64,000 nucleotides of DNA from Escherichia coli. Its GTDB lineage: Bacteria > Pseudomonadota > Gammaproteobacteria > Enterobacterales > Enterobacteriaceae. The position numbers were made by a program. Positions 28,001-31,000 of the stretch are shown one piece after another (the stretch's first letter is position 1; the number at the start of each line of letters is the position of its first letter). Location: the NCBI RefSeq assembly GCF_001677475.2, contig NZ_CP012498.1; one strand, written 5' to 3'.

Positions 28001-31000
28001 GGAGTCGCATCAGGGATACATCACTGAATGGTCTGTCACAGAAAATCTTAAATGCCCTGCTGTGATATTTTCAGGTTATAATGAGAGTAATGTTAATGAA
28101 ATCACTATAAAATCAGAAAGTAAAGTGAATGATGTTAAATCCAGCAATGTGATTTATGAATGTATTATTCCTGAGAAAAAACGTGAGTTGATACAAAAAC
28201 GTGCCGCAACTATGATGGCATCATGTGATGGTGAAATTAAAACTTGGTCTGGAAAAACAAATTCATGGTGGTTGTCATGTGGTGAACGTTTTTGTCTGAA
28301 TAAAAATCATTACAGAATTACTTCATTATATCTTAATGCATTAAACAATGATGCTGAGGATACTGGATATTGTAATTGTGAATTTCGTGCTTCGGATAAT
28401 AAAAATTCGCTTAGTTTTAAAGGAGAATTAAATTCCCCGGTTATTCCAGGTGTCTTACTTGCCAGAGTGGTTGGTCCTAACTCTGAAGAATATTATACAG
28501 ATAAATTAGGGCGTGTAAAAATTAGATTTCTCTGGGGGGAAATGTCCACGTCAGGTACAGAGGAAAGCTCCTGTTGGGTCCGTGTATCTCAGGCATGGTC
28601 CGGGGATGGTTTCGGTAGTCAGTTTATTCCTCGTATTGGCAGTGAGGTTCTGGTTAGTTTTATACAGGGTAATCCTGACTATCCAATTGTTGTTGGAACA
28701 GTGTATAATGGTCAGAATAAACCGCCTTTTTCTCTGCCTGAGAATAATTGTAAGTCTGGATTTGTTACCCGTAGTGTTAAGAATGGAAAAAAGGGAGAGG
28801 GTCATCAACTTGTTTTTGATGATAAAGAAAATGAGGAAAAAACCATATTAACTTCTTCTGGTGATTACCACCTGACAGTAAAGAAGGATATGATCAGCAA
28901 TATTAATAACTCAATGTCATTAACTGTTGCAAAAGGTCGTAATTCTGAAATAAAAAAAGGGAATGATAAGCTTATTCTTAAAGAAGGCAACTTGCATAAT
29001 GATGTGCATGGAAATATTGATATAAAAGTGTCAGATGGAGATTATAGCCTTAATGTGACTGGGGGCGGTGGTAGTTTTATTACTGATGAAAATCTTATAT
29101 TTGAATCAACACAATCAATAAAAATAAAAGTGGGGGCAAATGAGATAACTATATCCACATCAGGGATAAGTATAAAAGCCGCAAAAATTACCGTTGAAGG
29201 GCAAGCGTCTGCAGAGGTTAAAGCAGCCACACTTAAACTTGAAGGTCAGGCTATTTCTGAAGTAAAAGGCACTATGTTGACGCTTCAGGGATCTGCAATA
29301 ACGCAGATAAAAGGAGGAATAGTGAATATTGGATAAAGGATTTCATATGACAGATTCTAAAAACAACTCTGCTCTGGAGTTTAATAAGATTGTTGAGCAA
29401 ATGCTGCTAAAAGGAAAATGGCAGGATGCACTTAATTTCTGGATAGAGAATACAGATTCGTTAACATTAATTAAATGGCTGGCGCAATTTATCTCTCAGT
29501 CATCTTCTGAAGAAGACTCAGTGCTTTTACAATCCATTGTAAAATGGAAGGAAGGAGATGAAGAACAACGGTGGGAAATATTTAAAAACGCCGAGTCTGC
29601 AGGATTTTCTACTCAGTCAGGAGCCCTGGGGTTATCGTTATTTATATCACAAGGAAGTTTGAGTCCGACTTCATATCCACCAGTCCATGCACCGTCATGT
29701 TCAGAAAAAAAAATTATTTATGGAATATTAATGAATCAATCGTGTAAATGTTATGATACACCTGTCGAAGGGATTGTTTTTCTTTTTCAGCATTGGTGTA
29801 ATAGTTAATCTTGGGAGTTGTATATGCCTCAGCCAGCAGCAAGAGTTACTGATATGCATGTATGTCCTATGATGACGCCTGGTTTACCACCTGTTCCCCA
29901 TGTCGGTGGACCTCTGTTGCCGCCAGGCTCTCCGTCTGTACTCATTGGTGGATTACCTGCAGCTACATTGGGGACTCAGGCACTTTGTACCGGACCAGTG
30001 GATGCCGTTATTATGGGAAGTTTTAAAGTTTTTATATGCGGCAAACCGGCAGCACGAATGGGTGATATCTGTGCTCATGGGGGGACAATTGTCAGCGGAT
30101 GTCCTCAGGTATTAATGGGATAAATAATGAATAAGTTTGAGACGGATACATTACTGCTTCCTGTTATAGGAGAATCGCCGGCAGGTGATGATATTGAGTA
30201 TGATCCTGTGTATAGCGAAATACGGGCAGCAAGGCAAAATGATCCTGACTACATGTCCCAGGGAGAATGGGCTGTCAGTGAACCTCGTAGGGCTGACTGG
30301 AGAAAAGTAAGAAAATTATGTGAGGTTACTTTACGCAATAAGAGTAAAGATCTACAGATTAGTTGTTGGTATGTGGAGTCCTTGACGCATTTGTATGCTC
30401 TGGAAGGGATGAGTTGCGGACTGGAATATCTTGCTAAATTTATTTCTCAGTACTGGACTATATGCTGGCCATCCCAGGAAGAAGGGCAGGAAATTCGTTA
30501 CAGTAAACTAGTTCGTCTTGATATTGATTTGTCAGAGTATTTGAAAGCATATCCTCTTCTTGATGATAAAGAAATTACTCTGTCTAAATGGTATAAGGCG
30601 CTGTCGTTTGAGCATAGTGCGAGCTTATTAGAAGATGGAAAGGAAAAATTAATAGAAAGAGAAGGTGATCACTCTGTTGAATCGTTCAAAAAATCTGTAG
30701 GTAAATATAATGCACGCAAGATTAGTGAGCAACTTCTTAAATTTTCTGATTTACCTGACAAAATTGATGAGATTGAATCTTTTTACTTTTTTCATACTCA
30801 TGAAGATATACATAATATTTTCGCTAAAACCAGACATGCCATTAGTGAAATAATCGATTTATTGAGCCGTTTTTTACCACAAGACGTACAAGATAACAAA
30901 TCAGCAGCACAATTTTCAGTTGAACTAGAGAATATGGAGACAAAGAAAGTGTTTCCGGAGGAACAAAAGGAATTTGATACTGCATTAACAAACTCAATAG

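Follow-up and report, generated by a model that had tools for sequence, protein, structure and literature searches.

DUF6931 between vgrG and PAAR: a candidate accessory factor of the type VI secretion spike

Introduction

What does a small gene lodged between vgrG and the PAAR gene of a type VI secretion system (T6SS) cluster encode, when neither VgrG nor PAAR carries an additional domain? The question is raised by a 64,000-nucleotide stretch of Escherichia coli DNA (contig NZ_CP012498.1 of assembly GCF_001677475.2; hereafter the window), in which an open reading frame (ORF) for a protein of 153 amino acids occupies exactly this slot. The original prediction left the ORF unassigned, considered adaptor, effector and immunity functions for its product, and regarded it as the nearest candidate for a toxin. 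The analysis presented here places the product in DUF6931, a family that is catalogued yet functionally uncharacterised, and points to a cytoplasmic, non-secreted accessory or chaperone protein of the VgrG(-PAAR) spike, a reading to which we give a probability of about 0.5. In the literature the name DUF6931 was met in passing only, and no functional study of the family was found.

Identity of the gene and its family

The ORF lies on the + strand and extends from an ATG at 29347 to a stop codon ending at 29808 (29347..29808; 462 nt), according to both ORF calling and direct reading of the sequence. Its ATG follows the vgrG stop (29336) after 10 nt, and its own stop precedes the ATG of the PAAR gene (29824) by 15 nt. 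A Shine-Dalgarno-like AGGA motif (29337..29340, + strand) is found directly past the vgrG stop codon, 6 nt upstream of the start, and the opposite strand holds no ORF of 50 or more amino acids at this place. RefSeq annotates the same 462-nt coding sequence on E. coli plasmids that are 99.9% identical. With a ribosome-binding site, the RefSeq call and the purifying selection described below, the ORF is confirmed as a genuine gene, and the location and size originally given for it hold.

The two flanking proteins are bare, as had been claimed. The vgrG gene (tssI; 27354..29336, + strand) encodes a protein of 660 amino acids without effector extension (NCBIfam TIGR03361, E = 8.9e-106), in which Pfam recognises the Phage_GPD, Phage_base_V and Gp5_trimer_C domains and the DUF2345 beta-prism only. 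The PAAR gene (29824..30123, + strand) encodes a canonical protein of 99 amino acids (PAAR_motif PF05488, E = 4.4e-20), whose match to Tox-PAAR-like reaches an E value of 0.019 only.

The description of the product as unassigned, on the other hand, was wrong. Residues 17-128 align with positions 3-118 of the 145-position Pfam model PF22011 (E = 1.4e-11, score 45.1), the same family is precomputed on homologues of the protein, and an identical protein is listed in RefSeq as WP_000132334.1 under the name 'DUF6931 family protein'; the sequence match thus assigns the gene to PF22011. Pfam returns DUF6931 alone, no core model from TssA to TssM or PAAR is matched, and NCBIfam yields nothing beyond a spurious hit to CecR (E = 0.013; 15 bits, where the cutoff is 365), all of which upholds the view that the protein resembles none of the core components. 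The comparison that had been suggested with the adaptor families DUF4123 (Tap/Tec), DUF1795 (Eag) and DUF2169 (TvpA) gave no Pfam match, even at E <= 10. Likewise, no match was obtained to DUF3540 or DUF6484 in Pfam, to the PADLOC models, or in a sequence search of the PDB.

Searched exhaustively with phmmer, a set of 1.84 billion representative proteins gave 40 relatives at E <= 0.001; a second search, by profile against 5.8 billion proteins, contributed few further sequences and neither new names nor new kinds of fusion. When residue conservation was scored on an alignment of 31 family sequences, R75, G86, G103 and S104 proved invariant and F79, L96, F99 and P107 nearly so, within the motif R..(I/V)F...E..GF.TP.G.L.LS.F(W)S.GS(M/L)SP....PV.P. 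The Cys-rich C-terminus that had first drawn attention does exist (C118, C133, C135 and C151), but the four cysteines are partly lost in E. coli variants with 76-82% identity, and none of them is conserved in the wider family; judged from these alignments, they are a quirk of the lineage, and the motif carries no signal.

Predicted structure

AlphaFold2, supplied with the 31-sequence alignment, returned a confident all-alpha model of eight helices (predicted local distance difference test score, pLDDT, 94.5; predicted template modelling score 0.87), in which residues 102-118 form a loop that is both ordered and conserved. The model superimposes on family members in the AlphaFold Database (AFDB) from Ewingella, Kosakonia, Hafnia, Rahnella, Yersinia and Salmonella with template modelling (TM) scores of 0.7-0.85, while Foldseek found no significant solved relative in the PDB. 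The protein is acidic (isoelectric point 4.9) and has no transmembrane segments and no obvious signal peptide.

Genomic neighbourhoods of DUF6931

The surroundings of the gene were compared across 27 DUF6931 modules, of which 14 are of an Enterobacterales type that represents one cluster type and does not count as 14 independent cases. All 27 stand in a T6SS context. A vgrG gene is the immediate 5' neighbour in 24, and a 25th copy also belongs to a vgrG operon but sits two genes farther along; a PAAR gene is the immediate 3' neighbour in 20, three different PAAR-toxin fusions among them. Position after vgrG is therefore a conserved property of DUF6931 genes. In the 14 Enterobacterales-type clusters (the window, E. 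coli M8 plasmid A, a metagenomic contig, three Rahnella species, Ewingella, Tatumella, two Kosakonia species, a soil metagenome-assembled genome, Yersinia massiliensis, Buttiauxella and Photorhabdus), the order tssE-F-G-vgrG-DUF6931-PAAR-tssA-J-K-L-M is identical throughout.

Elsewhere the arrangement varies. A Vibrio crassostreae plasmid has vgrG-DUF6931-PAAR, and in two separate loci the PAAR protein of such a module is fused to Peptidase_M91. In one metagenomic genome (L022, 1..8550) two vgrG modules lie in tandem, and each includes a DUF6931 gene of its own: vgrG-DUF6931-PAAR::ATLF, ATLF being a metalloprotease toxin, stands beside vgrG, HEAT_2, a gene for an unknown 299-amino-acid protein and DUF6931. 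The two paralogues are 52% identical, and such side-by-side paralogous modules, which are also a feature of adaptor families, count in favour of an accessory role. One locus reads clpV-hcp-vgrG-DUF6931-tssB, Aureimonas has tssH-hcp-vgrG-DUF6931-tssA, and one vgrG-DUF6931 pair is an orphan, remote from all baseplate genes.

A second association of the family is with FHA proteins. At least nine fusions of an FHA or YscD-cytoplasmic domain to DUF6931 are present in AFDB, mostly from Planctomycetes; the FHA fusion proteins are about 280-390 amino acids long, with the FHA domain at the N-terminus. One such fusion gene (L005, 1478..2452) lies between vgrG and a PAAR gene for 99 amino acids. Moreover, tagH is next or nearly next to DUF6931 in Azospirillum, Pseudoroseomonas and Rhodobacteraceae plasmids (L007, L009 and L030). 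The order is vgrG-DUF6931-tagH-tssK in Pseudoroseomonas and vgrG-DUF6931-like-PAAR-tagH-tssK-tssL on the Rhodobacteraceae plasmid, whose DUF6931-like protein is a distant match (E = 1.8e-6, from a local search of small size). Azospirillum has DUF6931-tagH-tssK-tssL-tssM, without adjacent vgrG and with an overlap of 4 bp between DUF6931 and tagH.

These linkages bear on an alternative, namely that DUF6931 proteins form an assembly or regulatory checkpoint, or a scaffold, on the baseplate, the membrane complex or the FHA (TagH) branch, that they do not bind the spike, and that adjacency to vgrG merely records operon history. The recurrent FHA fusions and the close linkage to tagH-tssK-tssL-tssM, including the overlap in the vgrG-less Azospirillum module, speak for it, as does a copy (L026) that is convergent with the adjoining tssG and has neither vgrG nor PAAR nearby; a further point, the restriction of the function to T6SS-i, is taken up below. 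Set against this are the vgrG genes directly 5' in 24 modules, among them the orphan pair and auxiliary vgrG-DUF6931-PAAR::toxin modules, and the fact that no tagH was found in the examined stretches of the window cluster and its 13 Enterobacterales-type relatives. On this balance a regulator that makes no contact with the spike seems doubtful.

Evolutionary behaviour and the case for cargo

If the gene encoded a toxin, it would be expected to behave as an exchangeable cassette, and in this respect its divergence is informative. Against the Enterobacterales-type loci, the window DUF6931 protein is 30-37% identical, a range similar to that of TssE, TssG, TssK and TssL (24-41%) and VgrG (33-42%), whereas PAAR reaches 66-76%. 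PAAR is by far the most conserved protein of the window cluster, the other genes of which are 22-50% identical across these loci. Comparison with E. coli M8 plasmid A, whose DUF6931 copy is 80% identical, gives ratios of nonsynonymous to synonymous substitution rates (dN/dS) of 0.23 for DUF6931, 0.24 for VgrG and 0.14-0.31 for the remaining core genes; for PAAR the ratio is 0.04. The gene is under purifying selection and diverges as core genes do, which indicates vertical inheritance together with the cluster, as for a structural or accessory gene and unlike a swappable effector cassette.

DUF6931 is, in addition, independent of toxin type. In two modules (L022b and L024) the DUF6931 proteins are 72-75% identical and the PAAR domains 80-83% identical, whereas the fused toxins differ (ATLF in one, Peptidase_M91 in the other). 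What DUF6931 follows is thus the spike module rather than the toxin, and this counts against a role in immunity. That the protein neutralises a T6SS toxin is very unlikely also for the reason that no toxin adjoins its gene in the window.

The possibility that DUF6931 is itself secreted, as a small effector or a spike-decorating passenger on VgrG, perhaps anti-eukaryotic and for that reason without an immunity gene, has some points in its favour: the gene is directly 3' of vgrG, VgrG and PAAR are both bare, the core cluster contains no effector-immunity pair according to its ORFs and RefSeq annotation, and the family has no functional annotation. Several observations argue the other way. Searches with Pfam, NCBIfam and PADLOC, by sequence in the PDB and with Foldseek against the PDB revealed neither a toxin domain nor an enzyme domain; inheritance is vertical and core-like, with synteny fixed in 14 loci; the gene precedes genuine PAAR::toxin effectors that have downstream genes of their own; fusion to a cytoplasmic FHA signalling domain is ill-suited to export; and the 15-nt gap before PAAR is too short for an immunity ORF. 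Secreted cargo is accordingly quite unlikely, though less so than immunity. Among the three functions first considered, synteny, toxin independence and the FHA links therefore favour adaptor or accessory over effector or immunity protein, both of which we regard as unlikely.

A proposed role at the spike

Taken together, the conserved position after vgrG, the core-like evolution and the independence from toxin type suggest an accessory factor of the spike. From gene context and predicted properties, we infer a partner in the spike, retention in the cell and a function in chaperoning or assembly. DUF6931 would be a small, acidic, cytoplasmic, all-helical Tag protein, co-translated with the spike genes, that binds the tip of the VgrG trimer, the PAAR cap or both, either before or while they are built into the baseplate. 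Binding would keep the spike competent for assembly or would load it, and DUF6931 would itself stay unsecreted. In lineages with the threonine-phosphorylation pathway, this step might be coupled to the FHA protein TagH.

Several points weigh against this proposal. Canonical PAAR proteins are reported to bind VgrG without help (PMC11883445). PAAR proteins 62-64% identical to that of the window directly follow vgrG in a phage-tail-like cluster of Azospirillum thermophilum and in a T6SS-iii plasmid cluster of Runella (Bacteroidota), and in those clusters DUF6931 is not detectable; this PAAR type is thus not intrinsically dependent on DUF6931. Given that these are not T6SS-i clusters, the function of DUF6931 appears to be specific to T6SS-i, a point in favour of an assembly regulator. 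There is no adjacent vgrG in two modules (L007 and L026) and no adjacent PAAR in seven, and the 14 clusters of identical order, as noted, are not independent. When DUF6931 and PAAR were co-folded through a (GGGGS)6 linker, with a paired alignment of only 15 rows, the PAAR half remained unfolded (pLDDT < 50), and the model is uninformative as to binding. Finally, an IS110-family insertion sequence (IS) separates tssK from tssL in the window's own cluster.

Two narrower ideas about the partner were discarded. An exclusive pairing of DUF6931 with the PAAR subfamily of the window, comparable to that of DUF2169 with PIPY, is contradicted by the 62-64% identical PAAR proteins without DUF6931. No special C-terminal motif marks the VgrG proteins that precede DUF6931, since the ending '...KGGxxxIG/N' is also present in VgrG of the DUF6931-less Azospirillum phage-tail-like cluster.

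More broadly, DUF6931 could constitute an unrecognised class of T6SS-i spike accessories that spans phyla (Enterobacterales, Vibrio, alphaproteobacteria and Planctomycetes), serves canonical VgrG-PAAR spikes as a single-protein counterpart of Tvp/DUF2169, and also physically couples spike or baseplate assembly to FHA/TagH phospho-signalling. This wider picture is possible but tentative, clearly more so than the accessory role as such.

The T6SS cluster and its plasmid

The T6SS cluster of the window is complete and runs on the + strand from tssB to tssH. Its first part (21717..27341) consists of tssB (21717..22193), tssC (22196..23674), hcp (23684..24190), tssE, tssF and tssG, identified from ORFs, from a collinear, 99.9% identical plasmid annotated in RefSeq and from synteny in the 14 loci. 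Beyond the vgrG-DUF6931-PAAR segment are tssA (30127..31203; NCBIfam TIGR03363, E = 3.5e-67), tssJ and tssK (31211..33133; ORFs, RefSeq annotation and synteny), and then tssL, tssM and tssH (clpV), which occupy 35164..41724 (ORFs and RefSeq annotation), with tssH at 39193..41724; all are on the + strand.

The IS110-family element between tssK and tssL (33651..34666, + strand) was recognised from its ORFs and the RefSeq annotation of a related plasmid. It is not part of the T6SS, and its transposase is split into two ORFs (33651..34442 and 34253..34666). The cluster of E. coli M8 plasmid A lacks it and has a gap of 372 bp at the corresponding tssK-tssL site; in pCFSAN004181P the same element is further broken by an IS3 element. 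The insertion may affect expression of tssL, tssM and tssH, and the cluster of the window may be disrupted by polarity or be decaying.

The window belongs to a conjugative plasmid of the F-type/IncFII group, as seen from the TraI relaxase (1058..6394), TraX (6896..7633) and IncFII RepA (11725..12594) genes, and the T6SS island is flanked by many IS3, IS21, IS630 and IS110 fragments. The 24-kb T6SS region is 99.0% identical to an E. coli RM9088 plasmid (NZ_CP042296). A 1-kb stretch around the DUF6931 ORF is present in 98 of 5,426 complete E. coli genomes, with about half of the copies borne on plasmids.

The claim that DUF6931 is the nearest toxin candidate loses ground to another gene of the window. 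About 3.4 kb 3' of tssH, at 45143..45784 (+ strand), a protein of 213 amino acids is encoded that is homologous to the AvrPphF-ORF-2/HopF/EspJ-like ADP-ribosyltransferases (Pfam, E = 3.5e-8; NCBIfam EspJ_gen, E = 3.7e-7). AvrPphF-ORF-2, HopF and EspJ are type III effectors. The gene is preceded by an ImpA_N/TssA-like ORF (43793..44878) and followed by an ORF for 202 amino acids without a family match (45856..46464). Its product, together with a partner, is the more plausible candidate for the cargo toxin of this T6SS.

Implications

Canonical PAAR proteins are reported to cap VgrG by themselves, with chaperones required for PAAR-like (DUF4150) tips only (PMC11883445). If the proposed role is correct, this view would be qualified by a conserved accessory between vgrG and a canonical PAAR gene, present in one T6SS cluster type common to no fewer than 14 Enterobacterales-type loci and in several lineages besides. 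The pathway of spike assembly would, in addition, gain a component. Moreover, FHA fusion and tagH adjacency provide a handle on a long-standing gap, namely the contacts that the Fha/TagH scaffold makes during assembly. For the window itself the outcome is modest: the gene had already been catalogued, it is probably not a toxin, and its cluster is interrupted by an insertion sequence. The sequence and the family are in the databases, whereas the comparative picture (near-obligate position after vgrG, core-like evolution, toxin independence and linkage to FHA/TagH) was not found in any paper. On this picture the family may reasonably be put forward as a spike accessory factor that has so far escaped recognition, which would not surprise a specialist.

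Comparison with known spike accessories

Small accessory proteins of the spike are well represented by Eag (DUF1795) and Tap/Tec (DUF4123), which are cytoplasmic and unsecreted, are encoded next to vgrG and 5' of PAAR-containing or VgrG-loaded effectors, and have paralogues in auxiliary vgrG modules. However, these proteins accompany a specific effector, whereas DUF6931 is kept beside a bare PAAR in the core operon, whatever the type of toxin. For Eag, the downstream PAAR protein is expected to carry a prePAAR or N-terminal transmembrane helices, and that of the window ends at 99 amino acids without any extension.

Gene order brings to mind TagC-5 of Burkholderia T6SS-5, a DUF3540 protein encoded directly 5' of the PAAR gene tagD-5 (PMC6335564). 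Both occupy the slot after vgrG and before a small PAAR gene, followed by tssJ-K-L-M, and this similarity had prompted the guess that DUF6931 is a TagC-5 homologue. The guess was rejected because TagC-5 belongs to DUF3540, which has been described as a partial mimic of VgrG (PMC13373197); the VgrG-like OB-fold and beta-prism of TagC-5/TvpC are absent from the all-alpha DUF6931 model. TagC-5 is, furthermore, associated with pentapeptide-repeat proteins, and none is present at the window locus. Identity with Edwardsiella EvpJ was likewise rejected, as EvpJ is a PAAR protein. With TagH/Fha1, the FHA scaffold of the threonine-phosphorylation pathway of T6SS, the family is connected by fusion in Planctomycetes and by adjacency in alphaproteobacterial clusters, although the window protein, unlike TagH, has no FHA domain.

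Among analogues defined by experiment, the closest parallel in context is offered by the Tvp proteins. For accessory chaperones with genes that stand between vgrG and a PAAR-like gene there is published precedent (PMC11883445, PMC13373197): DUF2169/TvpA chaperones stabilise DUF4150/PIPY tips on VgrG (PMC11883445), and multi-protein Tvp complexes are known in Serratia, Pseudomonas and Burkholderia (PMC13373197). By composition the two differ, since Tvp is a multi-protein set (TvpA, DUF2169; TvpB, pentapeptide-repeat; TvpC, DUF3540/DUF6484; and TvpD), whereas DUF6931 is a single all-helical protein of 150-200 amino acids without a match to DUF2169, DUF3540 or DUF6484. They differ in partner as well, which is DUF4150/PIPY for Tvp and a canonical PAAR_motif protein next to DUF6931 in the window. 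On every count that defines the Tvp group, then, DUF6931 falls outside it, and any resemblance to Tvp/DUF2169 is at most one of working. In position the two agree: both take the slot between vgrG and a PAAR-type gene, and both show strict linkage to T6SS. The most elaborate Tvp class goes with small effector-less PAAR proteins, and its accessories have been proposed to fill a cavity in the baseplate (PMC13373197). The bare VgrG and bare PAAR of the window fit this situation, and a small PAAR without effector stands alongside class III Tvp just as it does at the window locus. Tvp proteins are non-core accessories proposed to keep the VgrG-PAAR spike competent for secretion, and it is to them that DUF6931 may, by its gene context, be likened.

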